Source: Gammaproteobacteria bacterium (GTDB lineage Bacteria; Pseudomonadota; Gammaproteobacteria; Steroidobacterales; Foliamicaceae). Taken from it: a stretch of 64,000 nucleotides of DNA. Positions within the stretch are counted from its first letter, which is position 1; every line of letters begins with the position of its first letter. Under the pieces are notes generated by a model. That model was given only the letters and a program-made list of their open reading frames with translations. It did no database searches and had not been told where the DNA came from. This document shows positions 43,180 to 63,633 of this stretch, in pieces. A program made the position numbers and the translations under genes. The stretch lies in NCBI GenBank assembly GCA_011523505.1, contig WTGP01000046.1, positions 5,046 through 69,045 on the forward strand, read 5' to 3'.

Positions 43180-44265
43180 TCAACAACGAAATAGAGCCCG
43201 GGCGTTGGCGGAAACCAGTTTTTCCTGAGTTGAAGCGTCCAGATCGCCCCTCTCGGCCAGCGCCTGCCGGTACATGATCGTGTCCCCGATATCGCCGGGG
43301 TGGCCGTAGTCGCTCGAGGCCATCAGGCGATCCTCTCCGAGGTAACGCATGATGTGCGGCAGGTCCTCGTGAACCTCGCAGGTGATATAGAAATTGTGCT
43401 GCTCGAGTTTTTCCCGGACGAATTCCATCAGCTCCTCCGGGCTCAGGCGCACGTGCAGCGCGGTTTGTACCGCGGCGGCCACCCAGGTGCATCCCGATTC
43501 GAAAAAGCCGAAGCGGAGGTCCGGGAACTTGGCGGGAAGCTTGCTGTTCAGAAGCACCGAGAAGGCGAGGTAGTTGGGGCTATCGGAAATGAACCGATTG
43601 AATCCCGCGCCGTCGCGGCCCTGAATGGACTCGAAGGCCGGGCTGCCGTGACCGATATGGACGCAGATGGGCATGTCCAGGTCGGCCGCAGCCGAATAGA
43701 CCGGATCGAAATCCGAATGGTCCAGGAACTTGTCGCCTTCCAGTCCCCGGAACAGGACGCCGACGGCCCCCTGGTCCCTGAAGGCGCGCATGTCCTCCAC
43801 CGTTTGTCCGGGATTCTTGAGCGAGGGCACGAAAACCCATCGCAGGCGGCCGCCTGATTCGCTGCAGCGGTCGGCCATCCACCGGTTGTATGCTCGCGTG
43901 AGCGCCAATTCGGCGCGCGGACGGGTGCAGCGTATGTTGAGAAAAAGGCTGGAAAAAACCACCTGCCTGTCCACCTGCTGACGGTCCATGTCCCCGAGTC
44001 GGGCAGGGACATCCTCGAGCGTGATGGAGCTTGCCTTGAATTCGCCGTTGGAGTGCTCGGCGATGAACTCGGCATCGTGCTTTCCGTACAAGTGGTTGTC
44101 GATCACCCAGAATTCCCGCGTAAAACCCCCTGCAAAATGGGCGCTGATGGTCGCACCCGACCGCTTGCGCAGAATCGAAGGGCGGAATTCCTCATCGCCG
44201 GACGACAGGAGGTCCCAGACGGAGCTCGGCTCCACGACATGGGTATCGGCATCAATGATCTGCAT
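43180..44265 (-). CDS. Amidohydrolase-2 (PF04909-like; ACMSD/LigI/decarboxylase-hydrolase superfamily), paralogue A1
   Basis: The track ORF extends to 44541. I prefer the ATG at 44265 (MQIIDADTHVVEP) with SD agagga. It has a metal-binding DxH at the N-terminus, ICVHIGHG and SSDYGHPGD. Confidence 0.85.
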   Translation of the reverse strand: MQIIDADTHVVEPSSVWDLLSSGDEEFRPSILRKRSGATISAHFAGGFTREFWVIDNHLYGKHDAEFIAEHSNGEFKASSITLEDVPARLGDMDRQQVDRQVVFSSLFLNIRCTRPRAELALTRAYNRWMADRCSESGGRLRWVFVPSLKNPGQTVEDMRAFRDQGAVGVLFRGLEGDKFLDHSDFDPVYSAAADLDMPICVHIGHGSPAFESIQGRDGAGFNRFISDSPNYLAFSVLLNSKLPAKFPDLRFGFFESGCTWVAAAVQTALHVRLSPEELMEFVREKLEQHNFYITCEVHEDLPHIMRYLGEDRLMASSDYGHPGDIGDTIMYRQALAERGDLDASTQEKLVSANARALFRC

Positions 44266-44354
44266 GAGCGTTTCCTCTTTCCTGGCGGCGCGGAAAATCA
44301 GGTGTTTCCGGAGATCGTATAGCGCGTGCGGCGCTTGAACAAATCCGTTTTCGG

Positions 44355-44370
44355 AATCCAATATTGGAAC
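44355..44370. promoter_or_regulatory. Box 1 of ATTCCA-N4-TGGAAT palindrome family (AATCCAATATTGGAAC)
   Basis: Read directly; the core TCCAATATTGGA is a perfect 12-bp palindrome. It lies between divergent A1 (start 44265) and iclR (start 44427). Confidence 0.6.
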
Positions 44371-44426: not shown

Positions 44427-45197
44427 ATGGACGATCGTTCCAAGTCAGTGGCACGGGTGATTGCCATTCTTGACCAGTTGAGCGTTTCACCCCGCCCGAT
44501 GTCGAATCTGGAGCTGGCGACCGAGCTGGACGTACCGGCATCCAGCATGCATCGGCTATTGCAAAAACTGACTGCGCTTGAATTCATCAATTGCGATGCG
44601 GATACGGCCCGCTATTCGGTTGCGCCACGGCTCAGCGAACTGGGCGTGCGCCTGGCCGAGGTCGGCGGATATTCCCAGCCACTGCGGGACCTGATGGGCG
44701 AAATCCGCGACCGGACCGGTTACACGGTAAGCGTCTGGGTGCCCAGCGGTGCGCGTGTGCGGATCTCCGCATTGCTGGTGGGGACGACGCGCGGAATTAC
44801 GTCCCGGCTGCCGGGAGAGCTCGCGGAACCCTTTTCGACACCAGGGCTCGCGATCGCGCCGCAATACAGCGACGACGCGATACGAAAACTCATCGCGATG
44901 GCCCGCCGTCACGGCGCTCCACTCGGGCGGGGTTTTACCCACCTCGCCCAGGTCCGAAGCGCGGTCAGGCGGGTGGCGAAACGGGGTTACCTGGTCGGCT
45001 ACAACATCCGTGGCGATGGATGGGCGATGGCTGCGTGGCCAATCCCCGTGACGGTTTCTCCGCCCAGGCCGGGTTGCCTTGCAGTGGGCGCGCTCGTTCC
45101 GGAAATGCGCCGGCGGCAGGTTGAGCTGGTGGACTTCGTTAATGGCTTGCGCGAGACCTATCTGAAAAAGCTGGGTTGGGCGAAGGCGGGACCGTAA
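44427..45197 (+). CDS. IclR-family transcriptional regulator
   Basis: SVARVIAILDQLS...MSNLELATELDVPASSMHRLLQKL is the wHTH. The C-terminus is an IclR effector domain, ~256 aa. Confidence 0.85.
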   Translation: MDDRSKSVARVIAILDQLSVSPRPMSNLELATELDVPASSMHRLLQKLTALEFINCDADTARYSVAPRLSELGVRLAEVGGYSQPLRDLMGEIRDRTGYTVSVWVPSGARVRISALLVGTTRGITSRLPGELAEPFSTPGLAIAPQYSDDAIRKLIAMARRHGAPLGRGFTHLAQVRSAVRRVAKRGYLVGYNIRGDGWAMAAWPIPVTVSPPRPGCLAVGALVPEMRRRQVELVDFVNGLRETYLKKLGWAKAGP

Positions 45198-46182
45198 CCC
45201 CGCCCGGGCCGAACGCGCTCTCGTCTGCTGAAATGACGGCGTCGAGGAACTGTCTGGCCAGCGCGGCAACTTCCTCGGGCGCCTCCAGGGGAGGGTAGTG
45301 ATTGACGTCATCGAGCTTGTCCACCCGCACAGTCGTGGAAGCGAGCCGGCCGGCAAGCAGTTCGAGAGTATCCGGCGGCAACACCGGATCCAGCATTCCC
45401 CAGATGAGTTGCGTGGGCGCCTTCACGGCGCCGAGAAAACGCCGTACCTCGCTGTCGTCGCGCATGATCGCCGTCATGCTGGTGAACTCGGAAGCACCCG
45501 GGCGGCGATTCAGGTCGTAGTACTCGGTGACCAGCGCATCGGTTACACGCTCCCGCCGTTCGAAATACGCGCTCAGAAAATCACGCCAGCAGGTTCGGGA
45601 AAACGGTCTTGCGTAGCGGACGCACGCGCCCATGGACCAACGCAGCTTCAGCGGCAGACGCGCCCGTGCTCCCTCGTTATCGACCGGCGCCGACGGCGGA
45701 ATGTTCGACAGAATGACGGCGCGAACACGCTCCGGATAGGTCGCCGCGAACCGATAGGCAATGATCCCCCCGCTGGACGTCCCGAGCAAGGCAACCGGGC
45801 CGACACCCAAGCGGTCGAGGAACTCGCTCAGGAAGGCTTCGGAAGTGAGAAAAAATTCCGGCGGGACGGGGCCCGACAATCCCGAGGGCGGTTGGTCATA
45901 ACGAATGGTCCGGTAGCCGTCGCCGAGCTCCCGCACCATATCGTCGAACATCCGCAGGCTGCCGAATGAGCCGTGCAGCAGCACGAGCACCGGGCCGCTG
46001 CCTTCGTCACGATAATTGACGTCCACGCCGGCAACCTCGACCTGCCGGGAACCCTCGCCGTACCGGGTCTGTACTTCGGCAAAGCCGATCGGCGGCGCAC
46101 TGCGCCGCGCGGCGAAGAACTGCGCGCTAACCAGGAGCGCAACGGCTGCTGCGCACGCCACGACTATCCAAAGGGCCCGCAC
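45139..46182 (-). CDS. Membrane-anchored/secreted alpha/beta hydrolase (H1)
   Basis: N-terminal hydrophobic segment. VNYRDEGSGPVLVLLHGS, nucleophile elbow LLGTSSGG, C-terminal NHYPPLEAP. The 3' tail overlaps the convergent iclR by 59 nt. Confidence 0.85.
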   Translation of the reverse strand: MRALWIVVACAAAVALLVSAQFFAARRSAPPIGFAEVQTRYGEGSRQVEVAGVDVNYRDEGSGPVLVLLHGSFGSLRMFDDMVRELGDGYRTIRYDQPPSGLSGPVPPEFFLTSEAFLSEFLDRLGVGPVALLGTSSGGIIAYRFAATYPERVRAVILSNIPPSAPVDNEGARARLPLKLRWSMGACVRYARPFSRTCWRDFLSAYFERRERVTDALVTEYYDLNRRPGASEFTSMTAIMRDDSEVRRFLGAVKAPTQLIWGMLDPVLPPDTLELLAGRLASTTVRVDKLDDVNHYPPLEAPEEVAALARQFLDAVISADESAFGPGGVTVPPSPNPAFSDRSRASH

Positions 46183-46206: not shown

Positions 46207-48561
46207 TCAGAACCGGAAGGTACCGCGAACGCCGAATGCGCGCTTGAACGGAAGTCCAGACACGAAGGCACGCTGGAAATTGTCCAGGTCGGTGTTGATG
46301 GACACGTAGTAGTAAGTGTCGTCATCGAACAGGTTTGTGACATAGGCCTCCACGCGGTAGCTTTCCGCCTCCACGCCCAAGCGCAGGTGCACGAGGTTCC
46401 GATCGCCGGTTTCCAATACGTTCGCCTGGGTAGCGTACTTGGTGGACTCGTACAAATACTCGCCGCGCACAAACCCGTCCATTCGCCCCCCGAACACCGG
46501 CCGCGTGTATGTGGCCGTGGCTGAACCGGTAAATTCCGGCGTCCAGTGCGCCTGGTTGCCCAAGTGGTCCGTGTTGCTTGCCAGGGCACCATTGCTTACA
46601 CAGAGGTTGCAGATGCCTTCCACGAACTCGGTGCTGTTGCGGGCAAAGGCGCCGGTAAGCAGCCAATGCTCCGTAAGCTGGAAGCGCGCCTCCAGTTCCA
46701 TCCCGTTGATGTCGAGCTGGCCGACATTGGTGGTAATGCCGACAGGGTTCTCAAGTCCATCCTCGTCGTCAATAAAATAGCCTATCTGCTGCACCTGCTG
46801 GTCCGTGAGCTCCCCCCAATAGCCGACCAGCGAGGCCTGCAGCCGTCCTTCCAGCAGCGTGCCCTTCACGCCCAACTCATACTGATCGAGCGTTTCCGGT
46901 TCGACTGCAAGTTGTGCCCCGGAGTTCCGCTCAAGGCTCGCGGCTTCGGCGGCGGAGAGGGTGACGATGATGGAGTTGAAAGTGCCGGGCCGGAATCCGC
47001 GCGCGTAGTTGGCGAACAGCATGAGATCGTTGTCGGTCTGGTACTGGATCGTGACCCGGCCTCCCACGTCGTTGAATTCCGTCTCAAGGTCTCCGGACGG
47101 CACGCTGACCTCGTCGTTCTGATAGCGAACCTCGCCGCTTACCGTGAGTTTTTCGGTGAAATCGTAATAGACGCCTCCGAAGATGCCCCGCGTCGATACT
47201 TCCTGAATGGGACGGCAGGTAAACCCGCGGGGCGCAAAAAACACGCCCGCCACGCAGGAGGGCACGCCTTCGCTCGTGACGATGTTGGCGCCTGCCGTCC
47301 AGCGGAATGAACCCTCGCCCCCGGAAGACAGCCGTGCCTCATGCGAGGAATTCTCGGCGTAACGTTCCACCATAAACGTATCAGCGAGTGCGGAAGTGGG
47401 TAGTCTGGGAAGCGTATTCTCGTCGCTGACCATCATCGTTTTCGTCTCATTGAAGCCGCTGATCCAGTCAAGGATCATACCGCCGGGCAAATCCGCTGTA
47501 GCTGAGAAAGTCCCGCCCTGAACGCGCTTGGCCAGCCCCATCTTTTCGATGAACACGCCCTCGTCATCGATCTGCCTCGACGAGGAATCGGAATAAAGCG
47601 AGTAGGCCTCGATCACATCCCGAACGTAGTTGTAGTTGCTTGAGTAGCCGGGTGAAAACGCATCATTGTGGCCCACCATCGACTCTGCAACGCTCACATC
47701 GGGCGGTGTCCCGCAGCGATAAGTGGCGCTTCCGTTGCCGTTGGAATCGCAGTTCGCGAAACTGCTCGGGAAGCGGAACGAGGGCTGGGGCCCATCGTCG
47801 ATCTCGATGTCCTCGAGCCTGAGCTTGAGCTTCAGCGTTTCGGTGGGCGTAGCCAGGAACGTTGCGACCAGCGACCGGGTTTCCTCGTCGCCGATTTCGC
47901 GCTCGCCGGTACGGTTGTTCTTGAAATGTCCTCCCTTCTTGTTGTTCCTGGCGGTGAGGCGAACACTCAAACGGTCGGCGACAATCGGTCCTTCCACTGA
48001 CAGCGACAGGTCCGCGGTGCCGAACCTGTCGAGGTCCAGGCCCACCGAGCCGCCGAACTCCTCACCGGGATCCTTGGTGACCATGTTCACGGCGCCGGAC
48101 AGCGTGTTGCGTCCGAAGTAGGCCGTCTGGGGCCCCCTGAGGACTTCCACGCGAACGACATCCACAAAGCTGCCGACCTCTCCGCCGAACACGGGCGCAC
48201 CGTCCACGAAAAACAGCGCCGGCGCCGACGAACTCGAGACACCGAGGATGTTCAGCCCGCGGATGATGATGTTCGGCACGCCACGGTCCGCGCGGTTGGC
48301 GGAGGCGTTCTGATAGGTCAGTCCCGGAGTGAACAGCGACATGTCCACAAAGTTCTTGAGGTTGGATATGTCCAGGTCCTCCTCAGAAAACGCGGATACG
48401 GCAAACGGGATGTCCACCAGCGCCTCCTCGCGCTTTCGCGCGGTGACCACGATCTCTTCCAGCCCCACCTGGGCGTAGACCCTGGTTTCGGGCAAGAGCA
48501 AGCTCGCGGTTACGACTGTGCAAAGCGCGAATAGCCCAATGCGATTCAGTGTCCTGGACAT
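46207..48561 (-). CDS. TonB-dependent receptor (T3)
   Basis: I prefer the ATG at 48561 (MSRTLNRIGLFALCTVVTASLLLPETRVYAQ) with SD gaaggagg. Plug EEIVVTARKREEALVDIPFAVSAF, C-terminal ...GVRGTFRF. Confidence 0.9.
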   Translation of the reverse strand: MSRTLNRIGLFALCTVVTASLLLPETRVYAQVGLEEIVVTARKREEALVDIPFAVSAFSEEDLDISNLKNFVDMSLFTPGLTYQNASANRADRGVPNIIIRGLNILGVSSSSAPALFFVDGAPVFGGEVGSFVDVVRVEVLRGPQTAYFGRNTLSGAVNMVTKDPGEEFGGSVGLDLDRFGTADLSLSVEGPIVADRLSVRLTARNNKKGGHFKNNRTGEREIGDEETRSLVATFLATPTETLKLKLRLEDIEIDDGPQPSFRFPSSFANCDSNGNGSATYRCGTPPDVSVAESMVGHNDAFSPGYSSNYNYVRDVIEAYSLYSDSSSRQIDDEGVFIEKMGLAKRVQGGTFSATADLPGGMILDWISGFNETKTMMVSDENTLPRLPTSALADTFMVERYAENSSHEARLSSGGEGSFRWTAGANIVTSEGVPSCVAGVFFAPRGFTCRPIQEVSTRGIFGGVYYDFTEKLTVSGEVRYQNDEVSVPSGDLETEFNDVGGRVTIQYQTDNDLMLFANYARGFRPGTFNSIIVTLSAAEAASLERNSGAQLAVEPETLDQYELGVKGTLLEGRLQASLVGYWGELTDQQVQQIGYFIDDEDGLENPVGITTNVGQLDINGMELEARFQLTEHWLLTGAFARNSTEFVEGICNLCVSNGALASNTDHLGNQAHWTPEFTGSATATYTRPVFGGRMDGFVRGEYLYESTKYATQANVLETGDRNLVHLRLGVEAESYRVEAYVTNLFDDDTYYYVSINTDLDNFQRAFVSGLPFKRAFGVRGTFRF

Positions 48562-48653: not shown

Positions 48654-48669
48654 ATTCCATTTTTGGAAT
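48654..48669. promoter_or_regulatory. Box 2 of the palindrome family (ATTCCATTTTTGGAAT; 7-bp arms AATTCCA/TGGAATT at 48653-48670)
   Basis: Read directly. It lies in the 159-bp gap between A2 (stop 48721) and T3 (start 48561), 93 nt upstream of the T3 ATG. Confidence 0.65.
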
Positions 48670-48720: not shown

Positions 48721-49803
48721 CTATGAGAGACCGAACAATGCCTGTGCGTTGTCGCTCAGTATCCGTCTCTTCTGTTCGTCGGTGACATCCCTCCGGCCGA
48801 GGAATTTTCTCTGCACGAAAATCGATTCGTCGACGTCTCCCGGATGGCCGTAATCGCTTCCAAGGACGAGATTGGCGTCTCCGGCGTACTGAAGGATCAA
48901 CGGCAGTTCTTCGTGTTCCTCGCAGGTGACATAGAGGTTGCGCTCCCGCATCACCGACTGCGTGAATTCCTTTCGGTCGCGATGGTCGCGGACCTTGTGC
49001 GCCTGCACCACGAGGTAGGTCAGCCATGACGAACCGATCTCGAAGAAACCGAACCTGAGTTTGGGAAACACGGTCGATATCTCACTCGTCGCGATTGCGG
49101 TGAACGACATGAGCGTCGGCACGGACATGTGAAACCGGGAAGGGCGGTCCTCGGTGTTGCGCCGGATCTGCCGGAACGCGGGGCTGGCATTGCCGATGTG
49201 AACGCAGATCGGAAGGTCGAGATCTTCGGCAACGCGATAGAGGGGATAAAAATTTGGGTGGTCCACGGGCCGGTTGCCTTCGAGTCCGCGCAGATGTATG
49301 CCGACCGCACCGCGGTCCTTGCACCAGGCGATCTCCTTGAGCGTCTCGTCCATGTTCTTCAGCGAAGGCTGCATCACCCAGCGCAGCCGCCCGTTGCCGC
49401 CGCTGCAGCGATCGGCGAGAAAGCGGTTATAGGCCCGCGAGAGCGCCAGTTCCACGGCGGGAGATTCGGGCGCGAGCGCCAGGAACAGGCTCGGGAAGAT
49501 GACGTGCATGTCGACGCCCTGCAGGTCCATGGCCTTGAGACGCTCATCGGGATCGGTCATGCCGAGGGCCCCGGGCTTGACCTCTCCGCCGGAGAATTCC
49601 TCGATCATCTCCAGGTTGGTGCGGGCGTACAACTGCCCGTCGATGGCCCACACCGAGGTCATGGGCGCCTGTATTGGGGGCACCATGATCCCCTCGTCCA
49701 GTTCGATCGCCTGCGGGCGATGAACCCGCTCCTTCTCGGTCATGTGCTCCCAGATCGCGGCGGTCTCGATCAGGTGGGTATCGGCGTCGATAATTTTCGG
49801 CAC
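48721..49803 (-). CDS. Amidohydrolase-2 paralogue A2
   Basis: Clear paralogue of A1 (KIIDADTHLIE, ICVHIGNAS, GSDYGHPGD). The track start is a TTG at 49836. I prefer the GTG at 49803 (V-PKIIDADTH), 4 nt after the H2 stop. Confidence 0.85.
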   Translation of the reverse strand: MPKIIDADTHLIETAAIWEHMTEKERVHRPQAIELDEGIMVPPIQAPMTSVWAIDGQLYARTNLEMIEEFSGGEVKPGALGMTDPDERLKAMDLQGVDMHVIFPSLFLALAPESPAVELALSRAYNRFLADRCSGGNGRLRWVMQPSLKNMDETLKEIAWCKDRGAVGIHLRGLEGNRPVDHPNFYPLYRVAEDLDLPICVHIGNASPAFRQIRRNTEDRPSRFHMSVPTLMSFTAIATSEISTVFPKLRFGFFEIGSSWLTYLVVQAHKVRDHRDRKEFTQSVMRERNLYVTCEEHEELPLILQYAGDANLVLGSDYGHPGDVDESIFVQRKFLGRRDVTDEQKRRILSDNAQALFGLS

Positions 49804-49807: not shown

Positions 49808-50770
49808 TTATTCCAGTGAATCGAGAAACTTCTCAAGATCGGCGGTAAACAGATCCGGATCCTCCCACATGGGAAAGTGCCCGAACTGAGGATAGCTGAT
49901 GACCGTCAGCGGCGCTTGACTGAATCTTTCGATAGTAGCCTCAAGGGACTGATATATAACGGTATCCTGTTCACACCATTGCAAGAGCACCGGTACCGTT
50001 ACGTTCTCCGCGAGCGCCCCGACATCCATGGTGCGGAACAATTCGACATTGGATGCGATGTATTCTCTCTGGCGCTGCGCGGCGCCCGGCAGATTGTTGG
50101 CGTCGTAGATCATGTCGATCATCTCGTCGGGAGGCGCGAAACCCGGCGGCGTGGTGTCCTCCAGGACCAGGCGCCACCAGTACTTCGAGCGGTAATCCGG
50201 CAGGAACCGGTTGTGAAACCAGCCCAGGGCCCGGATGCGCCAATCGACCTTGCGGGTCTGGCTCGGCCGCTCGAGCGGCAGGACCGACATCGCCATGGCC
50301 CGCACGCGGCCGGGGTAGCGCGCGTAATAGTCGAGCGCCACGTTGACTCCATTCGAGGTTGCGAGGATCGTAAAGGGCTCCAGGTCCAGGTGCTCCACCA
50401 GCCCGGCCACGATGTCGGCCGCCCGCGCCGTCGTCAGGATCCCCCTGGGGTCGGGCTCCGTGAAGCCGTAGGGAGGCCAGTCCAGCCGGACGACCCGAAA
50501 GCGGCCCTTCAGCCGGTCCGCTATCGGGCTCCATTCGTGCATATTCAGAATGCTGCCGTGGAGCATCAGGACGACCGGCCCGCGGCCTTCGATTCGCACA
50601 TGGACATTGACGCCATCGATATTCACAAATGTTGACGGAGGCGCCGCCCAGCGCGCCTTGACGGTCTCGTAATCGGTGTCCCACCAGCCGATCCGCATGG
50701 ATCCCACGAGCGCGACCAACACGGCTGCGACCACGACAACAACGGAGATTGTTCGCTTGAACAGGCTCAT
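49808..50770 (-). CDS. Membrane-anchored alpha/beta hydrolase (H2)
   Basis: N-terminal TM ISVVVVVAAVLVALV. GRGPVVLMLHGS, variant elbow ILATSNG (AxSxG), C-terminal GHFPMWEDP. ATGA overlap with the upstream M24 gene. Confidence 0.85.
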   Translation of the reverse strand: MSLFKRTISVVVVVAAVLVALVGSMRIGWWDTDYETVKARWAAPPSTFVNIDGVNVHVRIEGRGPVVLMLHGSILNMHEWSPIADRLKGRFRVVRLDWPPYGFTEPDPRGILTTARAADIVAGLVEHLDLEPFTILATSNGVNVALDYYARYPGRVRAMAMSVLPLERPSQTRKVDWRIRALGWFHNRFLPDYRSKYWWRLVLEDTTPPGFAPPDEMIDMIYDANNLPGAAQRQREYIASNVELFRTMDVGALAENVTVPVLLQWCEQDTVIYQSLEATIERFSQAPLTVISYPQFGHFPMWEDPDLFTADLEKFLDSLE

Positions 50771-53022: not shown

Positions 53023-53027
53023 GTCAG

Positions 53028-55707: not shown

Positions 55708-56537
55708 CATCCGGCTGATCCGACATCGGTCCGCCGCCAGATCACGGGGAAGAATTTCCCCGACGGAGGCTCGCCTTCCGGCAGGGCGTCCACCCCGGGA
55801 ATGGAGGCCTTGTAGGGGGCCGGATACCAGCGCACGTCGTCGCCGAAGACCCGCACCGCCAATCCCGTGCGCGGTCTGGCGCTCGAATGGTTCCCCTGTG
55901 AGAAATGAGGTGTGGACGGGTGGAAAACGACCGCGTCGCCCGGTTCCATGTCGAACGAGACGAACCGGAACGGAAAGTCCGGATTGTTCCGTTCCTTCTC
56001 GAAGTCGGGACAGAGCCCGTCGGCCTGATCGGGCGCGAACCCGAAATGCAGGTCGTTTTCCACGCAATGCCGATGAAACCCGGCCACATATTCCACGCGT
56101 CCGTTCTCACGGTCCACCGGGGTCAGCGCGACCCAGATGTTGGGGGCCATCTCGCCCGTGACCGGCCATGCGGTTTCGTCGCAGTGCCAGACCATCACCT
56201 TGGTGGAACCGGGCGGCTTGTGGAACAGGTGATCGTGATAAGCGCGTATGGTGTCCGCTCCGATGACACGACCAACAACCTCCCCGACGGGCGAATTCAG
56301 GACGAAATCCCGGAACACGCCCGGCTGGCGCCACATGAAGCACACGGACGCCATCGATGCGCCGTGCGAGGGTCCGGGAATACCGTAGTTTTCCGGATCC
56401 TTCAACAGCCGGTCCACTTCCTGCCCTAACCGCTCGATCCATTGCCGATCGAACACCTGTCGAAGGTGAACCACGCCATCCCGCCGGTAGGTGTTCCGGT
56501 GTTCCGCCGTAATCGGGTTGAGGGTAGGCTTATTCAT
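55707..56537 (-). CDS. Phytanoyl-CoA dioxygenase (PhyH)-family Fe(II)/2-oxoglutarate oxygenase
   Basis: 276 aa. YRRDGVVHLRQVF, facial triad WHCDE plus distal VVFHPSTPH, and the basic residue RTGLAVR. Confidence 0.8.
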   Translation of the reverse strand: MNKPTLNPITAEHRNTYRRDGVVHLRQVFDRQWIERLGQEVDRLLKDPENYGIPGPSHGASMASVCFMWRQPGVFRDFVLNSPVGEVVGRVIGADTIRAYHDHLFHKPPGSTKVMVWHCDETAWPVTGEMAPNIWVALTPVDRENGRVEYVAGFHRHCVENDLHFGFAPDQADGLCPDFEKERNNPDFPFRFVSFDMEPGDAVVFHPSTPHFSQGNHSSARPRTGLAVRVFGDDVRWYPAPYKASIPGVDALPEGEPPSGKFFPVIWRRTDVGSAG

Positions 56538-57934
56538 TGACTCTCGTCTTTCGCGATAGAGCGTAACCTCTCAAGCTCATGCTCGCTCAAGTTGTAGCGG
56601 GAGATCGCGGCGATGCTGATCGCCTGCAGCACAAGCGGCAGGACCGCTATGCACAGATAGAGTCCGAGCAGCGCGCTTTCGGTCTGCTCGATCCGCTGGC
56701 CTTCCGTCGCTTCAACGTAGCCCATGGCGCCAAGGAATACGCCCAGGAAGGCGACTCCAAGAGCGCCGGAAATTTTCTCCACGAGAACATAGAGCCCCGT
56801 GAATGCTCCCTCGCGCCGCAGTCCTGTTTTCAGGTAGTCGAATTCCAGTGCGTCGGGCAGCATCGCCTGGGTCAGCAGGAAGGTTCCGCCGCCCGCAACG
56901 CCGATCAGGACCGATCTCAGGATGATCAGGCTGACAGGCTCGCCGGGCCCGGCAAACCACCAGGAAAAATGGGCTACGCCATAAAGCGCCGCTGCGATCA
57001 TGTAGCCGTTCCGTTTCCCCATGCGGCGCGCGACGAAAAGCCAGGCGGGCTGGGAAAGGATAAGCGCCACGCTCAGAACGCCCAGGTACAAGCCGAGCAC
57101 GTCGTCGGTAACCTCAAGGACGTGTTTCGTAAAGTAGGCGGTGGTGGAAACGGCGATCGCCAGCACCAAGAAGTACACCAGCTTGGACACCATGAGCCAA
57201 AGGAAGGGGATGTTCCCGAGAGCCGACTTCAGTTGCTCCTTCAGGGGCGGCTGTTGCAGCCGCTGAACGGTCTGGGGGGCGTGGCGAAGCGACCATACGC
57301 ACACCACCACCGCCACGGCTGCGATGCCCGCCAGTACCCAGGCCATCCGGGCGTGACCTGCCCGGGTTGCGCCCCACCAGGCCAGCAGGGCAGGGCCCAG
57401 GCTCAAGCCGATCAACGAGCCGAACGAGGAAAACACGACCCGGAACGACATGAGCTGGGTGCGCTCGTGATAGCTGGGCGTCAATTCCACGGCCATTGCT
57501 ATATAGGGGATATTGAACATCGTGTACGAAGTAGCGAACAACAGCAGAAAGGCCGACAGGTAGATCAGCAGGGGCGTCCCGCTTGTATCGGGAGTTGTGT
57601 AGAGGGCCGCAACGGAGGCGGCGCACAACAGGCCGCCTGTCGCCAACCACGGCAGCCGCCGGCCCCACCGCGTGGAAATACGGTCCGAGAATGCGCCCAT
57701 CAGCGGGTCGCTGATGGCATCCCAGACCTTCGCGCCGGCGAAGATGAACGCCGCAGTGGCCGCGGCAACGCCCAACGAATCGGTCATGAAACGCAGCAAA
57801 AGGACGTTCGACGACAGGTTCAGGATGGTGATGGGCATCGAACCGAGTCCCCATCCGAGCCGTGTTTTCAGCGGGAGCGTAGCTTTGCCCGGTCCCGCTG
57901 CGCCCCCGTCGTCGCCTGTCCTGATTCCCGGCAT
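56534..57934 (-). CDS. GPH-family MFS symporter
   Basis: DAISDPLMGAFSDRISTRWGRRLPWL is the GPH signature. I prefer the ATG at 57934, 17 nt after the cupin stop. ATGA overlap with PhyH. Confidence 0.85.
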   Translation of the reverse strand: MPGIRTGDDGGAAGPGKATLPLKTRLGWGLGSMPITILNLSSNVLLLRFMTDSLGVAAATAAFIFAGAKVWDAISDPLMGAFSDRISTRWGRRLPWLATGGLLCAASVAALYTTPDTSGTPLLIYLSAFLLLFATSYTMFNIPYIAMAVELTPSYHERTQLMSFRVVFSSFGSLIGLSLGPALLAWWGATRAGHARMAWVLAGIAAVAVVVCVWSLRHAPQTVQRLQQPPLKEQLKSALGNIPFLWLMVSKLVYFLVLAIAVSTTAYFTKHVLEVTDDVLGLYLGVLSVALILSQPAWLFVARRMGKRNGYMIAAALYGVAHFSWWFAGPGEPVSLIILRSVLIGVAGGGTFLLTQAMLPDALEFDYLKTGLRREGAFTGLYVLVEKISGALGVAFLGVFLGAMGYVEATEGQRIEQTESALLGLYLCIAVLPLVLQAISIAAISRYNLSEHELERLRSIAKDESQ

Positions 57935-57951: not shown

Positions 57952-58476
57952 TCAACCGGGCAGCAGCCGATCCAGGATGGATTCGCCCGGCGCCGGACAC
58001 AGGGACTCGTCAAGTTGCACCGACACTCCGAACTGGCCCTCGGGACCCGCGCCCGACCTGTGGCCGCTGCCGACACAATCCTCGGCGAAAAGAACGTCTC
58101 CGTGACCGAACTCGTGACGGCTTCCGTCCCGCAGCTCGACCACGAGAGTTCCGAATATCGGTATCAGGATGTTGGGCTGGTTGGCCACGTGCCAGTCATA
58201 CATGAAACCGGGCGCGATGGATCCCACGGTCACACGGTCAGCGGGATGCCGGATCAGCAGATGAGGAGGCTGCGGACCTGGACCGGTCACCGGCACTTCC
58301 CGTATTTCAGCTACTCCGCCGGCGTTGGCAAACAGGTTGAAGTATCGCTTCACCCACGGCGGCCCGTCTGCGGCCAGTGCCGGTCCCGCACCACCGCCAA
58401 CGCCGGCGAGCGCCAGCGCCGCGCTCGTGCCCGCAGTCGAGACGAAGGCCCTTCTTGTCGAACTCGATTCGCTCAT
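57952..58476 (-). CDS. Tat-exported small cupin-domain protein
   Basis: I prefer the ATG at 58476 with SD ggagaggga. MSESSSTRRAFVSTAGTSAALALAG is a twin-arginine signal. C-terminal GDVLFAEDCVGSGHRS is a cupin-type motif. Confidence 0.7.
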   Translation of the reverse strand: MSESSSTRRAFVSTAGTSAALALAGVGGGAGPALAADGPPWVKRYFNLFANAGGVAEIREVPVTGPGPQPPHLLIRHPADRVTVGSIAPGFMYDWHVANQPNILIPIFGTLVVELRDGSRHEFGHGDVLFAEDCVGSGHRSGAGPEGQFGVSVQLDESLCPAPGESILDRLLPG

Positions 58477-58556: not shown

Positions 58557-59564
58557 ATGAAAAGAACGGTTCTGTTCCTGGCGCTGTCCGCCCTCGCCGT
58601 TGCAATGATCTTCGTCGGAGTTGCGCGAACAGGGCTACTCGAAGCGAACTATGAAGAAGCGCGGGTTCGCTATGGTTCCCCACCCTCGCAGTTCATGGAA
58701 ATCGATGGGACCGAGTTGCACTACAGAGACGAAGGCAAAGGCCGAGCGCTGGTCCTGTTGCACGGCTCCCGAGGCAATCTTCAGCAGTGGGACGGTTGGG
58801 TTGCCGAACTCGGCGCCGAATTTCGCATCATTCGCCTGGACGCCCTCGGGCATGGTTTGTCGGGCCCCGACGGACGGGACGATTACAGCGCCGAACGGGG
58901 GATTTACCTGTTGCGCGAACTGCTGGCGGCGCTGGGGGTAGAACGATTCATCCTGGGAGGAACCTCCAGCGGCGCCAACCAGGCGGTCCGCTACGCCGCG
59001 ATGTATCCGCAGCAGGTGGAAACGCTGCTGCTTTCGACGGTGCCTCTGCGACTGCCGTCCACGTCACGCACCCGCCTGCTCGATCGCCTGACATTCTGGG
59101 TGCATGACGAAGTGCTCGGAACGAAAGGAACGAACCTGTACTGGCGGGCGTTTCTCCGCAGTATCTACGGCGACCCGGACAAAGTCACGAACGAACTCAT
59201 CGAAAGGTACCGGACGCTCAATACGTTGCCCGGCCAGGAACGACGGTTCCGGAAACGTATCGAAGTGTGGTACGACAGCGGGGGGCCGGAACGCGATTAC
59301 GCTACGGCCGGGACGGTGACGGCGCCAACCTTCATTCAATGGGGCGGCTCCGGTCCGGTGCTGCCGGCTGAATTGTTCTGCGAGATTGCAGCCGCGTTCT
59401 CATCGACATCACCCCGGATGATTCAGTATTCAGACCTGGGGCACAAGCTGATCATGGAGGATGCCGTGCGGACAGCCCGGGACGCTCTTGCCTTCGTCAA
59501 AACCGGCGAAGTCGGAGAAGCATGCGAACCGGCGGATGCCGGCCGAGACGCTACGGCGAAGTGA
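58557..59564 (+). CDS. Membrane-anchored/secreted alpha/beta hydrolase (H3)
   Basis: ATG at 58557 (MKRTVLFLALSALAVAMIFVGV). LHYRDEGKGRALVLLHGS, elbow ILGGTSSGA, distal LGHKLIMED. Confidence 0.85.
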   Translation: MKRTVLFLALSALAVAMIFVGVARTGLLEANYEEARVRYGSPPSQFMEIDGTELHYRDEGKGRALVLLHGSRGNLQQWDGWVAELGAEFRIIRLDALGHGLSGPDGRDDYSAERGIYLLRELLAALGVERFILGGTSSGANQAVRYAAMYPQQVETLLLSTVPLRLPSTSRTRLLDRLTFWVHDEVLGTKGTNLYWRAFLRSIYGDPDKVTNELIERYRTLNTLPGQERRFRKRIEVWYDSGGPERDYATAGTVTAPTFIQWGGSGPVLPAELFCEIAAAFSSTSPRMIQYSDLGHKLIMEDAVRTARDALAFVKTGEVGEACEPADAGRDATAK

Positions 59565-61719
59565 CCGCTGTCTCGCTGTCCGCAAGCCAATGCGCTACCG
59601 CGTTGACCTCGTCGGCGTCGAGCCCCATCGCGTGGCCTTGCATGGATCCCAGGGTCAGTTTTTCCACAAGGACAGCCGCATTGAGCCGGGCCAGTTCGTG
59701 GCGGGAGGGCACGTCCGCGCGTTCCTGATCGTGGCACGCGGCGCAGCGCGCTTCGTATAGTTCCGGACCGTTCGTGGTATCGATGCCTGCTGAGCTGCTG
59801 GCATTGGAAGAGGGGCCGGCCCGCCGTCCATGAAGGCGAGATGCCTTCGCTCCCTGGCGTTCCATGGCGGCTCCCAGCCCGAAGGCCTGAATGCGGTCCG
59901 TTCCCACGAAGACCCTGCCGTCGGTAACGAGCGGTTCGTTGTACTTCCCGCTGGGATACAGCTGTCCGGGGGCGCTGCGCCAGAGGAGCTCCAGGGAAAT
60001 GGCATCGAGCGCGTAGAGCAGGGGCCGCGGCGGGTCCTCACCGTAGAGCGAAGCGGAGCGCGGAACGTTCACATCGAACACCCAAACCACGGCATTGTTG
60101 CGATTGAAGCTGGTGACGACCGGCGACGCCGGATTCCGCAGGATGAGATCCGGCTGAATGGCGTCGAGACGAAGATAGGGCGGCTCGTCCGGATTCACGA
60201 CAATCTCAACCCGCGCCAGACCCGGCGGTATGCTTTCGCTCGACTCTTCGGCGGCCTTCGCGGTGCCCGTCAGGTAGACGAGATGGCGACCGTCGGGAGC
60301 ATTCAGGTATGCCGGCGTGGTGCGGCTCTTGGCGAAATCGCCCATGCCGACGCGATCGCTGTAAGGCCCGAAGACGTTCAACGGCCCGCGCGTCCCAAAA
60401 ATCGGCTGTATGTCCGGGGACAGCAAGGAAGTGTCCGCGCCGGCGCCCTTGATGGGGTCCTCGGCGCAGGCTTGCCGCCTGACGAGGCTTCCGGGCATGC
60501 GTTTTCTGTCCAGGAGATAGGCGTTGCCCTGCTTGCTGCCGCCGTGTATGAGCAACTTCGGGTTCGGCGAGTCCTCCGGGGGCAGGTCCACAAGGATCGG
60601 CGTTCCGCTGCCGAGGTCGATGTCCTGGCCCCCGGCCTGACAATAATTGAAGGGGGCGTAGGTGCCCGCCAGACGCAGCCTGCCTCCGGCTCCCGAGGTC
60701 AGGCGCAGTATGGATTGGCTCCAGTTGCCGTCGCTGTCGGGATACACCCCCTGGTTCCCCATTCCTTCCAGCGCGTTGATGAAGCTGCTGCCGGAGGCAA
60801 CGTATAGATCTCCGTCGGAATCCATCGAGGGCCCGCCCGAAGCCCACAGGCCGCCGACGCCTTCATCCGTGCGGGCGGTTATCGAGAAAGCGCCGGCAAC
60901 GCGCCGTTCAAGCGTGTCGACCGACAGCAGCCAGCCGCTGATCGGCTCGCCGCCGAAAGCCACGTAGAGCCACCGCCCATCGGCGCTGAGATTCAGCGCG
61001 CCGCGCTGCAGCATCGCCACCCCGGACGGGAACCGATTGTCGCCGTTTGCATTGATGCCGGGACTGTTGACAGCCTCCGCCGACAGGTCGAGAGGCCAGC
61101 CGTCCACGCTGGCGCCGCTCGCCAGGTCCAGAGCATGGACGTGCCAGGCCCGGGACTCGTCGCAGCCCACGACATAGATTCGGCCGAGCCGCCGGTCGAT
61201 AACCGGAGTGCTGAGGATGCCTCGCGTGCCGTTACCGCAGGGACGGTCGAGCAGGCGTCGCTGCCAAAGAGTTGCGCCCGCCGGCAGACCGCCGGCCGCC
61301 GAAGCATTGATGGCTGCGATGAAGCCTGTGGCGCTGGCCGCGAAAACCACGTCCAGGCTGTCTGTGCGGCCGGCCTCGCCGGTCACGTCGAGGCCGGAGA
61401 CGTACAGCGGCGCCGCGAACAGCCGTGGCGGCGTCGTGCCCGCGTAACCCAGCGGTTCGGACTCCCAGAGAAGCCCGAAGCTACCGGACTTGACGGCGGC
61501 CGGCGTAAGCAAGCCTTCGTTGTCGTACCAGCCGGTCCTTTGCGCTGTCCCGTGATAGGTGAGATTGTCGGAGCTGAGGCGGGCGTTCCCCGCTTTTGCG
61601 GGGCTGTCGGCGCTGATCAGAATGACCAGAAGGCAGCAGTAAAGACTGCCGCGCAGTGTCAAGGAGACGGCGCGAAAGCGTTTCCGATGACGCCGCGTGG
61701 AGCGGCCGTCAGAGAGCAT
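59551..61719 (-). CDS. Secreted PQQ-like/BamB-like beta-propeller protein fused to a C-terminal class I cytochrome c domain
   Basis: ~720 aa. The signal-like N-terminus ends in SLYCCLLVILISADSPAKA. The long body is rich in Gly/Asp/Trp blades (WHVHALDLASGASVDGWPLDL, GRWLYVAFGG, LYALDAISLELLWRS, DGRVFVGT). The last ~90 aa contain a CAACH haem-c motif and a candidate Met ligand (GSMQGHAMG). The start is uncertain: 61719, 61764 or GTG 61668. Confidence 0.8.
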   Translation of the reverse strand: MLSDGRSTRRHRKRFRAVSLTLRGSLYCCLLVILISADSPAKAGNARLSSDNLTYHGTAQRTGWYDNEGLLTPAAVKSGSFGLLWESEPLGYAGTTPPRLFAAPLYVSGLDVTGEAGRTDSLDVVFAASATGFIAAINASAAGGLPAGATLWQRRLLDRPCGNGTRGILSTPVIDRRLGRIYVVGCDESRAWHVHALDLASGASVDGWPLDLSAEAVNSPGINANGDNRFPSGVAMLQRGALNLSADGRWLYVAFGGEPISGWLLSVDTLERRVAGAFSITARTDEGVGGLWASGGPSMDSDGDLYVASGSSFINALEGMGNQGVYPDSDGNWSQSILRLTSGAGGRLRLAGTYAPFNYCQAGGQDIDLGSGTPILVDLPPEDSPNPKLLIHGGSKQGNAYLLDRKRMPGSLVRRQACAEDPIKGAGADTSLLSPDIQPIFGTRGPLNVFGPYSDRVGMGDFAKSRTTPAYLNAPDGRHLVYLTGTAKAAEESSESIPPGLARVEIVVNPDEPPYLRLDAIQPDLILRNPASPVVTSFNRNNAVVWVFDVNVPRSASLYGEDPPRPLLYALDAISLELLWRSAPGQLYPSGKYNEPLVTDGRVFVGTDRIQAFGLGAAMERQGAKASRLHGRRAGPSSNASSSAGIDTTNGPELYEARCAACHDQERADVPSRHELARLNAAVLVEKLTLGSMQGHAMGLDADEVNAVAHWLADSETAVTSP

Positions 61720-62677
61720 CGTCGGGCGTGGCTGCCTCAAGGTATGCGGCGACGATCTTCGCAAACCTTACCGGGGATTCCAGGGGAGGGTAGTGGCCCA
61801 CATCCGGCATGAACACGGTCGAAACCTGCGTATTCTCGAGATAGCCGGCCAGCGTACCGGCGGATGCGGGAATCAGCAGCGCGTCGCGGCCACCCCATAT
61901 CAGGAGCGCCGGCGCGCGCACGCCGGCCATCGCCTTCCTGGCCTTTTCGTGATCGGCTACCAGTCCGATCATTGCGATCGGGTTGGGTTCCTTCACCCGC
62001 CGGTTGAAGTCGTAATACTCGCGCCGCGTCTGCTCTGAAATCCGCCGCGGGTCTCCGGTGTAGAAATCCAGGAACAGGTTGATGAAGTTCTCCGACTCGA
62101 AGCCTGTCTCCTCGAACTCCTCCAGCGCCGCCTTGAATGCGGGCGGATGGTTGACGTGATCGGTCGTGACCGGGTCCGACGGGGAGTTCGACATGATCAG
62201 CCGGTTCACCCGGTCGGGGTAGGTGGCCGCGAGGTACATGCAGGTCGTGCCTCCGCTGGAGACTCCGACGCAGGTCACCTGGTCTACACCCACGTGGTCC
62301 AGCAGCCCCGCGGCCAGGTCCGCCGGTTCCATGCGGGCCACGGCTTCGTCGGACACCGGGCCGGACAGGCCGTTTGGCGGCAGGTCGTAGCGGATCACAC
62401 GATAGCGATCGAGGAATTCCGGCGCTACGCGGTCCCAGGTGCGCAGCGAACTGCGCGAACCGTGGATCATCAGGATGGCCGGGCCTACACCCTGATCCTT
62501 GTAATAGATCTCGACACCGCCGATTTCCGCGATCCGCCCGTCGGAATCGCCATACTTCTGCCGCAGCTCATCCAGCGTGAGCCGCTGATCGGCGAATTCG
62601 TCCGCAAGGCCGGGAATGGGAACCGAAGGCACAAGCAGCACAAACAGCACTACGGCGAGTAACAGGTTTCGTTTCAT
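61709..62677 (-). CDS. Secreted alpha/beta hydrolase (H4)
   Basis: Signal peptide MKRNLLLAVVLFVLLVPSVPIPGLA. IYYKDQGVGPAILMIHGS, elbow CVGVSSGG, GHYPPLESP. Confidence 0.9.
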   Translation of the reverse strand: MKRNLLLAVVLFVLLVPSVPIPGLADEFADQRLTLDELRQKYGDSDGRIAEIGGVEIYYKDQGVGPAILMIHGSRSSLRTWDRVAPEFLDRYRVIRYDLPPNGLSGPVSDEAVARMEPADLAAGLLDHVGVDQVTCVGVSSGGTTCMYLAATYPDRVNRLIMSNSPSDPVTTDHVNHPPAFKAALEEFEETGFESENFINLFLDFYTGDPRRISEQTRREYYDFNRRVKEPNPIAMIGLVADHEKARKAMAGVRAPALLIWGGRDALLIPASAGTLAGYLENTQVSTVFMPDVGHYPPLESPVRFAKIVAAYLEAATPDDAL

Positions 62678-63633
62678 TGCGGTACAGCAGCCTCCATGAA
62701 TGCAGCGACGATCCGGGCAAATCTTAAGGGAGATTCCAGGGGAGGGTAGTGGCCCACGTCCGGCATGAACACGGTTGAAACCAGAGTATTCTCAAGATAA
62801 CCGGCCAGCGTGCCCGCCGCTGCCGGCGGCAACAGCTCATCGCGGACTCCCCAGATCAGGAGCACCGGTGTGCGCACGCTCGCCATTGCCCTCCTGGTTT
62901 TCTCGTGGTCGCGAACGCGTCCGGTCAGCGCCAGCCTGTTCGCCTCCTTCACCCGCCGGTTGAAATCGTGGTATTCGCGCCGTGTCTGCTTCGATATCCG
63001 CCGGGGGTCTCCACTGAAGAAATCCAGGTACAGGTCCATGAAATCCTCCGTTTCGAATCCGGTTTCCTCCAATACCCTGATAGCCTCCTCGAATGGCGGC
63101 GGTTCGTTAAGGTGATCGGTCGTGACCGGGTCGGACGGGGAGTTCGACATGATCAATCGGTTCACCCGGCCCGGGTAGGCAGCCGCAAGGTACATACAGG
63201 CAGTGCCCCCGCTGGACACTCCCACGCAGGTAACCTGGTCAACACCGAGATAATCCAGCAAACCGGCTGCAAAGTTTGCCGGTTCAAGGCGATTTGCGGC
63301 TTCGTCGGAGACCGGGCCGGACAGGCCATTGGGCGGCACATCGTATCGAACCACCCTGTATCGGTCGAGGAGTTCCGGGGCCACGCGGTCCCAGGTGCGC
63401 AGCGTGCTGCGCGAGCCGTGGATCATAAGGATGGCCGGCCCCTTGCCCTGGTCCTTGTAGTACACCTCGACACCGCCGATTTCCGCAAACTGCCCATCCG
63501 GGTCGGCATACTCTTGCCGCAGCGTTTCGAGGGTGAGTCGATCCGCCAGTACATGGTCCGCCAGGGCGGGAGTTGGACATGACGGAACCAGCAATGCAAA
63601 CAGCACTGTGCCCAGGCAGAGGTTGCGGTTCAT
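62674..63633 (-). CDS. Secreted alpha/beta hydrolase (H5), tandem duplicate of H4
   Basis: I prefer the ATG at 63633 (MNRNLCLGTVLFALLVPSCPTPALA). It is colinear with H4 and identical over long runs (GPAILMIHGSRS.LRTWDRVAPE, GVDQVTCVGVSSGGT, RVNRLIMSNSPSDPVTTDH, VSTVFMPDVGHYPPLESP). ATGA overlap with H4. Confidence 0.9.
   Translation of the reverse strand: MNRNLCLGTVLFALLVPSCPTPALADHVLADRLTLETLRQEYADPDGQFAEIGGVEVYYKDQGKGPAILMIHGSRSTLRTWDRVAPELLDRYRVVRYDVPPNGLSGPVSDEAANRLEPANFAAGLLDYLGVDQVTCVGVSSGGTACMYLAAAYPGRVNRLIMSNSPSDPVTTDHLNEPPPFEEAIRVLEETGFETEDFMDLYLDFFSGDPRRISKQTRREYHDFNRRVKEANRLALTGRVRDHEKTRRAMASVRTPVLLIWGVRDELLPPAAAGTLAGYLENTLVSTVFMPDVGHYPPLESPLRFARIVAAFMEAAVPQ

Follow-up and report, generated by a model that had tools for sequence, protein, structure and literature searches.

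What does a bacterium capture with two TonB-dependent receptors whose gene neighbourhood encodes no carbohydrate-active enzyme (CAZyme)? This question is raised by a gene island at positions 43180-63633 of a 64-kb stretch of contig WTGP01000046.1 (assembly GCA_011523505.1) from a Gammaproteobacteria bacterium; the whole 64 kb is called the window below. The original prediction, made from the sequence alone, read the island as a system of capture, periplasmic processing, import and cytoplasmic finishing that dispenses with CAZymes, and could not map it to a described pathway. Our favoured reading, to which we give a probability of about 0.6, is that of a TonB-dependent utilisation locus under the control of IclR, which serves one class of organic compounds with ester or lactone groups. 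Two independent lines, a palindrome shared by three promoters and synteny in relatives, support the view that the island behaves as one unit, and they lend the same support to the proposed capture-to-finishing logic.

The island genes were scanned by open reading frame (ORF) listing and translation, and with Pfam and NCBIfam; a public contig identical to the island (L091) and one that is 95% identical (L005) provided independent gene calls. ORF calling, translation and Pfam recovered all 17 genes of the original prediction in the same order and on the same strands. They include two TonB receptors and five envelope-targeted serine hydrolases, as judged from Pfam and hydrophobic N-termini, and no CAZyme: Pfam gave no match to glycoside hydrolase, lyase or SusD families in 41813-64000, and among the 17 genes none to SusD, glycoside hydrolase, polysaccharide lyase or carbohydrate esterase families. 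The NCBIfam scan of all genes returned nothing above any curated cutoff and only generic subfamily-level similarity, and therefore none of the named pathway enzymes has a recognised equivalog among the genes. Literature searches on mycosporine catabolism and MysH, on sponge or Steroidobacteraceae esterases, and on clusters of TonB receptor, IclR, amidohydrolase and MFS genes found no description of this island, and the sponge literature checked for esterase and TonB yielded CAZy esterases only. The lack of a match to any described pathway thus holds.

A shared palindrome and co-conserved genes

The palindrome ATTCCA-N4-TGGAAT occurs at only three sites in the 64 kb, all of them in island promoters. 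Box 1 (GTTCCAATATTGGATT, 44355..44370) lies in the divergent promoter between the gene of an IclR-family regulator (44427..45197, plus strand) and A1 (43180..44265, minus strand), which encodes a cytoplasmic PF04909 protein. Box 2 (ATTCCAAAAATGGAAT, 48654..48669) stands about 95 bp upstream of the receptor gene T3 (46207..48561, minus strand), and box 3 (ATTCCAAAATTGGAAT, 55692..55707) about 150 bp upstream of the second receptor gene, T4 (53147..55537, minus strand). The full 16-mer ATTCCAAWWWTGGAAT is present with 0, 0 and 2 mismatches at the three sites. For the shorter pattern TTCCA-N4-TGGA, five strand matches, equivalent to the three sites, were counted against 0.52 expected, and none of 100 shuffled sequences reached five. 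The same box is found at the junction of the PhyH gene and T4 in the related loci L005 and L011. The regulator carries an HTH_IclR domain (1.3e-10) and a BhcR-like alignment spanning residues 4-199; its C-terminal part gave no Pfam match to the IclR effector domain. We infer that this protein binds to the three boxes, which are thus candidate operators. Scans for a riboswitch and for a Fur box ahead of T3 and T4 were both negative, and vitamin or iron uptake was rejected for this reason. A promoter and terminator scan gave counts no higher than in shuffled sequence. At its 3′ end the regulator gene converges with the hydrolase gene H1 (45139..46182, minus strand), with a 59-bp overlap at 45139-45197 if both ORFs are read literally from GTG to stop.

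Do these genes also stay together in other genomes? We fetched 80 genome loci around homologues of the island's propeller::cytochrome c protein (59551..61719, minus strand), scored them with the island's own proteins and binned them by propeller identity: ten loci fell at 50-70%, and 67 loci below 50% served as an internal control. The 50-70% bin held Amidohydro_2 (at least 40% identity) in 8/10 loci, IclR in 7/10, hydrolases of the H1-H5 type in 6-8/10 and the H6 type in 5/10. In the distant loci the counts were 0/67 for Amidohydro_2 and for IclR, and likewise 0/67 for hydrolases of the H1-H5 type and for the H6 type at an identity of at least 40%. The A1 orthologues of the mid-distance loci are 67-71% identical to A1, and IclR orthologues (51-62% identity) adjoin the propeller or A1 gene in seven of the ten. 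Steroidobacteraceae share the core order MFS_2-[abH]-[Amidohydro_2]-IclR-propeller-TBDR (abH, alpha/beta hydrolase; TBDR, TonB-dependent receptor). The synteny check suggested with the original prediction therefore finds the propeller co-conserved with Amidohydro_2, IclR, hydrolases and GPH in Steroidobacteraceae and in other metagenome-assembled genomes (MAGs). A lack of co-regulation or co-conservation would have spoken for a mosaic of unrelated operons; what was found is one palindrome at three promoters, and joint occurrence in 7-8 of 10 mid-distance loci with none among the 67 distant ones.

The nearest genome loci are those of the MAGs COS2_bin_9 and RHO1_bin_71, in the latter of which T4 is 99% and GPH 96% identical. 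Both MAGs derive from sponges (Coscinoderma matthewsi and Rhopaloeides odorabile, respectively) and belong to the gammaproteobacterial order UBA11654 (PMC8163846 supplement). The island's host is taken to be an uncultured, sponge-associated member of this order. The sponge MAGs hold nearly all island genes, in shuffled order. Further away, a Lysobacterales MAG has an A1-type gene, hydrolases and IclR together with a TonB receptor and MFS_2, and a Rhodobacteraceae MAG has an A1-type gene, hydrolases and IclR with an ABC binding protein instead of the receptor. The latter locus (L095) contains three Amidohydro_2 genes, one of A1 type (64% identical to A1) and one A2-like (40%), beside hydrolases, two IclR genes, the SBP_bac_5 binding protein of the ABC type, FAD_binding_3 and a glyoxalase-fold gene; neither a TonB receptor nor a propeller is present at the locus.

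Proteins of the envelope and of the cytoplasm

The N-terminus is hydrophobic in H1-H5, T3, T4 and the propeller protein and not so in A1, A2, the M24 protein, H6 and PhyH, and the compartment map of the original prediction therefore holds. T3 (784 aa in L091) and T4 each consist of a Plug domain and a TonB_dep_Rec barrel and are 31% identical to each other. Against the SusC/RagA model TIGR04056 they score 31 and 26.5 bits, with a cutoff of 368, and against the TonB-siderophore subfamily model 105-107 bits, with a cutoff of 223.5. Two GPH/MFS_2 symporters, GPH (56534..57934, minus strand; MFS_2 4.7e-87; 466 aa) and GPH2 (41813..43177, plus strand; MFS_2 E 9.5e-74), are 31% identical, and their TIGR00792 score lies just below the cutoff. 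GPH symporters usually carry glycosides.

The five envelope-targeted serine hydrolases are H1 (Abhydrolase_1, 5e-26), the membrane-anchored H2 (49808..50770, minus strand), H3 (58557..59564, plus strand), H4 (61709..62677, minus strand), predicted to be secreted, and its tandem duplicate H5 (62674..63633, minus strand). Together with H6 they match only Abhydrolase_1, Abhydrolase_6 and Hydrolase_4 in Pfam; Abhydrolase_1 is the match of H2 to H6 as well. H1-H5 retain HGS, G-x-S-x-G and the catalytic His, with H3 lacking Asp at the usual position; in H1 the whole set (HGS, GTSSG, Asp, His) was found. Pairwise identity among the five is 24-38%, except for H4 and H5, which share 76% of their amino acids and 79% of nucleotides over 300 nt, with a period of 956 bp. 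This duplication is present in L008, L009, L011 and L091 and not in L001 and L005. The nearest structures to H4 are generic esterases and 6i8w (3.3e-14), which we take to be PlaF, the membrane-anchored phospholipase A1 of Pseudomonas aeruginosa. Both H4 and PlaF have one hydrophobic anchor at the N-terminus, with an Abhydrolase_1 domain behind it, but the similarity is low and confined to the N-terminal half, and other esterases score better.

H6 (52129..53022, plus strand) departs from this pattern. It has no hydrophobic N-terminus, carries G-S-H-T-G at the nucleophile elbow and lacks the C-terminal His; in alignments with haloalkane dehalogenases its elbow His takes the position of their Asp nucleophile, and G-x-H-T-G is kept in 14 orthologues and paralogues. 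With no Ser, Asp or Cys nucleophile and no catalytic His in its sequence, this cytoplasmic alpha/beta-fold protein is not a canonical serine hydrolase and lacks the catalytic triad. Further G-x-H-T-G paralogues lie in the extended island at L005:3553-4509, L005:5534-6775 and L017:13587-14606. The 3′ end of H6 overlaps, on the other strand, a relic downstream of T4 (53007..53090, minus strand; repeat D3), in which 28 codons of an H1-like N-terminus can still be read (LEAAGLIVNYRDEGCGPVLVLLTHSFRS); the hydrolase relic that had been noticed at this place is real, and it suggests that a module of box, receptor and hydrolase was duplicated and then decayed.

What is the redox protein of the island? 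The original prediction had proposed a periplasmic beta-propeller with its own haem c, and this is borne out by the AlphaFold2 (AF2) model, Foldseek and the haem-binding motif. The 722-aa product, predicted to be Sec-exported, has as its sole Pfam match a weak one to a C-terminal cytochrome c; CAACH stands at 659-663, and C659, C662 and H663 are nearly invariant in 29 homologues. The best Foldseek match of the propeller model (pLDDT 80) is 1kv9, the quinohaemoprotein alcohol dehydrogenase IIB, at E 4.6e-16; methanol dehydrogenases rank next. With the type II quinohaemoprotein alcohol dehydrogenases (1kv9; 1yiq, ADH IIG) it shares a periplasmic eight-bladed propeller and a C-terminal mono-haem cytochrome c. 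It also differs from them: TM-scores against enzymes of the pyrroloquinoline quinone (PQQ) type are about 0.5 at 10-14% identity, the PQQ families PF01011 and PF13360 give no match even at E<=10, and the mature protein has no vicinal Cys-Cys, its sole CC pair being in the signal peptide and none of the invariant Cys 161, 186, 360 and 418 being adjacent. A PDB sequence search found no relative, and some homologues give weak PQQ_2 matches. Further invariant residues of the propeller protein are E286, W292, D366, D368, K396, N399, R466, K592, D608 and R609. Because of the low identity and TM-score, the missing PQQ match and the missing Cys pair, we do not file the protein as a quinohaemoprotein; we describe it, from its model, as having the fold of a quinohaemoprotein alcohol dehydrogenase and as probably functioning like one.

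The family of this protein is large and widespread, with members in Xanthomonadales, Sphingomonadales, Steroidobacteraceae, Burkholderiales, Verrucomicrobia and Acidobacteria, and is without a characterised member; a PQQ review preprint does not cover it. The acidobacterial members (L030-L033, P0072 and similar) contain an inserted 3-keto-disaccharide-hydrolase (DUF1080) domain. A Stenotrophomonas propeller gene has a gene with an FGE-sulfatase domain and a GH127 gene as neighbours, and the P0118 gene has transposons, DUF1326 and S15/S9 hydrolases nearby. These two distant contexts were dropped as a clue to the substrate, since the island is not shared there.

A second candidate for periplasmic chemistry is the 174-aa product of 57952..58476 (minus strand), for which the name Tat-cupin proved apt although Pfam gave no match. 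It carries a conserved TRRxF twin-arginine motif predictive of export by the twin-arginine translocation (Tat) pathway, and all PDB neighbours of its AF2 model (pLDDT 82) are cupins. Its small uncharacterised family of about 65 sequences has invariant His96, Glu132, Asp133, Cys134 and His139.

In the cytoplasm, A1 (Amidohydro_2 E 2e-20) and its paralogue A2 (48721..49803, minus strand; Amidohydro_2 E 1.6e-20; 42% identity) had been taken for hydrolases. Amidohydrolase-related dinuclear oxygenases (AROs) are defined by an N-terminal D-x-H and a C-terminal D-x-P-H-x-D/E, neither of which is present in characterised PF04909 hydrolases and decarboxylases (PMC13154177). Both proteins carry IIDADTH near the N-terminus, and its D-T-H (D7-T-H9 in A1) aligns to D-S-H of PtmU3. 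H203, E256, D319, H322 and D325 are invariant in A1; His203 and Glu256 align to PtmU3, and the other three lie in the C-terminal loop S-D-Y-G-H-P-G-D of both proteins, where Asp and His keep the spacing of, and align to, the SDYPH of PtmU3, with the last acid one residue later. Among solved structures, the closest to A1 and A2 are PtmU3 (profile E 2.7e-13), 4DZI, SfbO (8sm6), DitZ (8uyr) and AibH (6m1w/6m2i), with the decarboxylases ACMSD and LigW interleaved among the PDB matches (E 1e-6 to 1e-11). High-potential Fe2 AROs typically have a hydrophilic x in D-x-H and, in most cases, no neighbouring Rieske ferredoxin (PMC13154177), and no Rieske ferredoxin gene lies beside A1 or A2.

A1 and A2 thus resemble the AROs (PtmU3, DitZ, SfbO, AibH1H2, 4DZI) in the PF04909 fold, the hydrophilic x, the PtmU3-aligned His and Glu, the C-terminal Asp/His/Asp loop and the genomic context, and differ in having S-D-[YF]-G-H-P-x-D in place of D-x-P-H-x-D/E. 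Among 113 full-length homologues, 111 have D-x-H and 111 have SD[YF]GHPxD, while the literal ARO motif is found in none, and for this reason we regard them as a distinct clade that the published ARO filter would overlook. The metal-ligand pattern fits AROs and not PF04909 hydrolases or decarboxylases; A1 and A2 are therefore probably not hydrolases and look like dinuclear oxygenases of the ARO type, and membership of their clade in the ARO superfamily is plausible.

Two further cytoplasmic enzymes complete the set. The PhyH-family Fe(II)/2-oxoglutarate dioxygenase (55707..56537, minus strand; PhyH 3e-25) has as its closest solved relative MysH (PDB 9c9n, E 2.4e-27, 99 bits), an enzyme of the same type from the biosynthesis of mycosporine-like amino acids. 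MysH is, however, a cyanobacterial biosynthetic enzyme, and the island protein is too distant for the same substrate to be assumed: 99 bits within the PhyH family do not fix a substrate, and mycosporine-like amino acids were retained as a weak hint only. The M24-family metallohydrolase (50767..52011, minus strand; Peptidase_M24 2.4e-25; 414 aa in L091) is nearest in the PDB to prolidases (Xaa-Pro dipeptidases, 2.6e-13) and DoeA (5e-7).

Extent and surroundings of the island

The genes had been placed correctly by the original prediction, and the limits 43180-63633 too narrowly on both sides. On the left, orthologues of GPH2 (59-60% identity) adjoin those of H3, A1, IclR and the propeller in the Steroidobacteraceae loci L003 and L012; because they sit inside the core, GPH2 is counted as an island member. 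On the right, 33 bp separate H5 from an APH-family kinase-like gene, of which the window holds the 5′ part (63667..64000, plus strand) before the gene runs out of it. In L091 this gene is followed by a FAD_binding_2 flavoprotein of the soluble fumarate/urocanate-reductase/TcuA type, an H6-type hydrolase, Peptidase_C13 and another hydrolase, and L005 carries in addition two FMN monooxygenases of the NtaA/DmoA family. Judged from this gene order, the island is bigger than first drawn, with GPH2 on the left and a continuation past the window end on the right.

The genes are closely packed, with overlapping stops and starts in the ORF listing. The starts of A2, T3, T4, M24, GPH, H3 and the propeller gene were fixed through the gene calls of L091 and L005, and L091 backs the corrected starts used here for these seven and for A1. 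A longer A1 ORF (to 44541) was rejected as a high-GC read-through that would overlap the IclR start, and longer ORFs of T3, T4, M24 and the propeller gene as spurious high-GC 5′ extensions, the shorter starts being backed by L091.

Directly left of GPH2, at 38046-41711, lie an ABC ATPase gene and two ABC-2/DUF3526 permease genes. A separate polysaccharide-lyase utilisation locus with two TonB receptors occupies 17985-37984; it contains a Chondroitinase_B-type (PL6-like) lyase, an Alginate_lyase+Hepar_II_III lyase, an SDR, KduI, a LacI regulator and a pectate-lyase-like protein, with an acyl-CoA dehydrogenase and a Cys/Met pyridoxal-phosphate enzyme interleaved. At 4529-8919, tRNA-Val (GAC; 4529-4604) is followed by a gene for a 1387-aa Lhr-type helicase.

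Competing explanations and a possible route

To which kind of locus does the island belong? Xanthomonas carbohydrate utilisation (CUT) loci, the catabolic clusters of sphingomonads that are linked to TonB-dependent transporters, and the polysaccharide utilisation loci (PULs) of Bacteroidota are all TonB-dependent utilisation loci. Like them, the island brings together in one cluster an outer-membrane TonB receptor, enzymes for the periplasm and for the cytoplasm, a symporter of the inner membrane and a regulator of its own. It differs in having no CAZyme and no SusD, in receptors that are not of the SusC/RagA type, and in enzymes that are esterase-type hydrolases and oxidoreductases. The clustering of TonB-dependent transporter, inner-membrane transporter, degradative enzymes and regulator that marks a CUT-like locus is thus present, while both marks of the Bacteroidota-type PUL, a SusC/RagA-type transporter and adjacent SusD and CAZymes, are absent.

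The original prediction had also drawn a loose analogy with the degradation of polyvinyl alcohol (PVA), whose operon encodes a PQQ-dependent PVA dehydrogenase, an oxidised-PVA hydrolase and a cytochrome c. The architecture is indeed similar, with a quinohaemoprotein-like dehydrogenase in the periplasm and serine hydrolases predicted to be exported. Beyond architecture the analogy fails: H1-H6 are Abhydrolase_1 proteins with no Pfam match to Esterase_PHB, presumably the family of the oxidised-PVA hydrolase, and the propeller is not recognisable as a PQQ enzyme by sequence, having neither the Pfam match nor the vicinal cysteines. The island also adds TonB receptors, symporters and putative cytoplasmic oxygenases.

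Several observations weigh against a single utilisation locus for one class of compounds. The box is missing from the promoter regions of H5-H4-propeller, cupin-GPH-PhyH/H3 and M24/H6; gene order is shuffled between relatives, and M24, PhyH and cupin are absent from most Steroidobacteraceae versions, being accessory outside the sponge clade; GPH carriers are present with no glycosidase; the propeller is distant from PQQ enzymes; and A1 and A2 lack the literal ARO motif. Given the shuffled order and the missing genes, the island may consist of a core to which modules for different substrates have been added. A rival explanation sees the region as a mosaic in which several unrelated operons, namely two modules with receptors, one with the propeller and one for oxygenation and transport, are mere neighbours with different substrates. 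Such a mosaic would explain why only three of six or so promoter regions have the box, why relatives differ in content, why a Novosphingobium MAG (L026) has PhyH-cupin-propeller with no A1 or IclR while the Rhodobacteraceae MAG has A1, hydrolases and IclR with no propeller, and why the paralogue pairs T3/T4, A1/A2 and GPH/GPH2 suggest two parallel routes. We nevertheless consider it rather unlikely, since the same palindrome stands in front of the two receptor genes and of the gene for the regulator, the propeller, Amidohydro_2, IclR and hydrolase genes recur together in most of the mid-distance loci and in none of the distant ones, and the genes are densely packed.

If the island is one unit, other substrates have to be considered. 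In a pathway for phenolic or aromatic esters of the lignin or tannin kind, A1 and A2 would be decarboxylases or hydratases of the LigW/ACMSD type and some hydrolases esterases or meta-cleavage-product hydrolases. IclR regulators often control aromatic catabolism, the two decarboxylases do appear among the PDB matches of A1 and A2, H1 and H4 weakly match the PcaD, HsaD and BphD models, and related loci hold phenol-hydroxylase-type FAD_binding_3 genes, UbiD and a glyoxalase-fold gene. Genes for ring-cleaving dioxygenases, for Rieske oxygenases or for a CoA pathway are, however, absent from the window, and the island hydrolases, being predicted to be exported, are unlike meta-cleavage-product hydrolases. 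The D-x-H of A1 and A2 is moreover unlike what characterised decarboxylases and hydrolases of PF04909 have as N-terminal motifs, and their extra C-terminal His/Asp pair is typical of dinuclear oxygenases (PMC13154177), so that we judge this explanation improbable. Scavenging of proline-rich peptides from sponge collagen or spongin, with periplasmic S33-type aminopeptidases, a cytoplasmic M24 prolidase and a C13 peptidase nearby, would account for the prolidase-like M24 protein, for weak Hydrolase_4 (S33) and proline iminopeptidase matches and for the Peptidase_C13 gene just past the window in L091. It is hard to credit nonetheless: the hydrolases score higher with esterase and lactonase models than with S33 peptidases, the symporters are of the GPH type instead of peptide transporters, most Steroidobacteraceae versions have no M24, and the propeller::cytochrome c and the ARO-like proteins would have no place in peptide use. 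Equally far-fetched is the import of a lactone xenosiderophore or of an oxidised PVA-type polymer for cleavage by periplasmic hydrolases. Receptors with periplasmic, membrane-tethered hydrolases follow the logic of IroE and PfeE, the pva operon joins a quinohaemoprotein with serine hydrolases, and the siderophore subfamily model does match both receptors; yet that match stays far under its cutoff, no Fur box was found, the hydrolases are Abhydrolase_1 proteins and neither of Fes/IroE nor of Esterase_PHB type, and the locus is rich in putative cytoplasmic oxygenases and apparently regulated by IclR.

How might an IclR-controlled locus for ester- or lactone-bearing compounds work? We infer the catalytic roles, the order of the steps, the cofactor of the propeller and the substrate as follows. 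T3 and T4 would bring the compound or compounds through the outer membrane. In the periplasm, H1-H5 would strip acyl groups or open lactones, and the propeller::cytochrome c would oxidise or otherwise redox-modify the compound and pass electrons to the respiratory chain; the Tat-exported metallo-cupin would act there as well. The redox step may come before the hydrolysis, as in the oxidise-then-hydrolyse route of the original prediction, or after it. The products would be imported by GPH and GPH2 and hydroxylated in the cytoplasm by PhyH and the ARO-like di-iron oxygenases A1 and A2, and the M24 metallohydrolase and the atypical H6 would process them further. The APH protein, the enoate-reductase-like flavoprotein and, in L005 only, the NtaA/DmoA monooxygenases would probably continue the route. 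IclR would sit on the ATTCCA-N4-TGGAAT boxes and let go in the presence of the substrate or of an intermediate.

Our best guess at the substrate class, and a doubtful one, is natural products of an alicyclic or terpenoid-like kind that are acylated or bear a lactone. All hints to the substrate are weak. The hydrolases resembling esterases are numerous, and FMN monooxygenases of the Baeyer-Villiger, N- or S-type and an enoate-reductase-like flavoprotein lie nearby. The GPH carriers and the 3-keto-disaccharide-hydrolase fusion in distant propellers point, again faintly, to glycosidic or amphipathic cargo. Diterpenoids are the substrates of the characterised H-AROs, PtmU3 and DitZ (PMC13154177). 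It is possible, and we suggest it tentatively, that a class of natural products from the host or from dissolved organic matter is handled by an undescribed pathway of the island that leads from the envelope to the cytoplasm and is built on four uncharacterised groups: a non-classical-PQQ haem-c propeller, a Tat metallo-cupin, a His-elbow alpha/beta family and an SDYGHPxD di-metal oxygenase clade.

Sponge symbionts and Steroidobacteraceae process large, poorly defined pools of organic matter, and nearly all annotated uptake loci are carbohydrate PULs. The island offers a clean, apparently regulated and conserved case of the same capture-process-import logic for what is probably a non-carbohydrate substrate. 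It also offers handles: a candidate operator with its regulator as possible bait in ligand fishing, the propeller::cytochrome c family, and a candidate new clade of amidohydrolase-fold oxygenases that is now annotated as 'amidohydrolase'. If the ARO assignment is true, the cytoplasmic arm of the island would be oxidative and not hydrolytic, with two di-metal oxygenases and the Fe(II)/2-oxoglutarate enzyme PhyH. And should the island act on a metabolite of the host, the locus would tie the lineage UBA11654 to the turnover of sponge-host chemistry.

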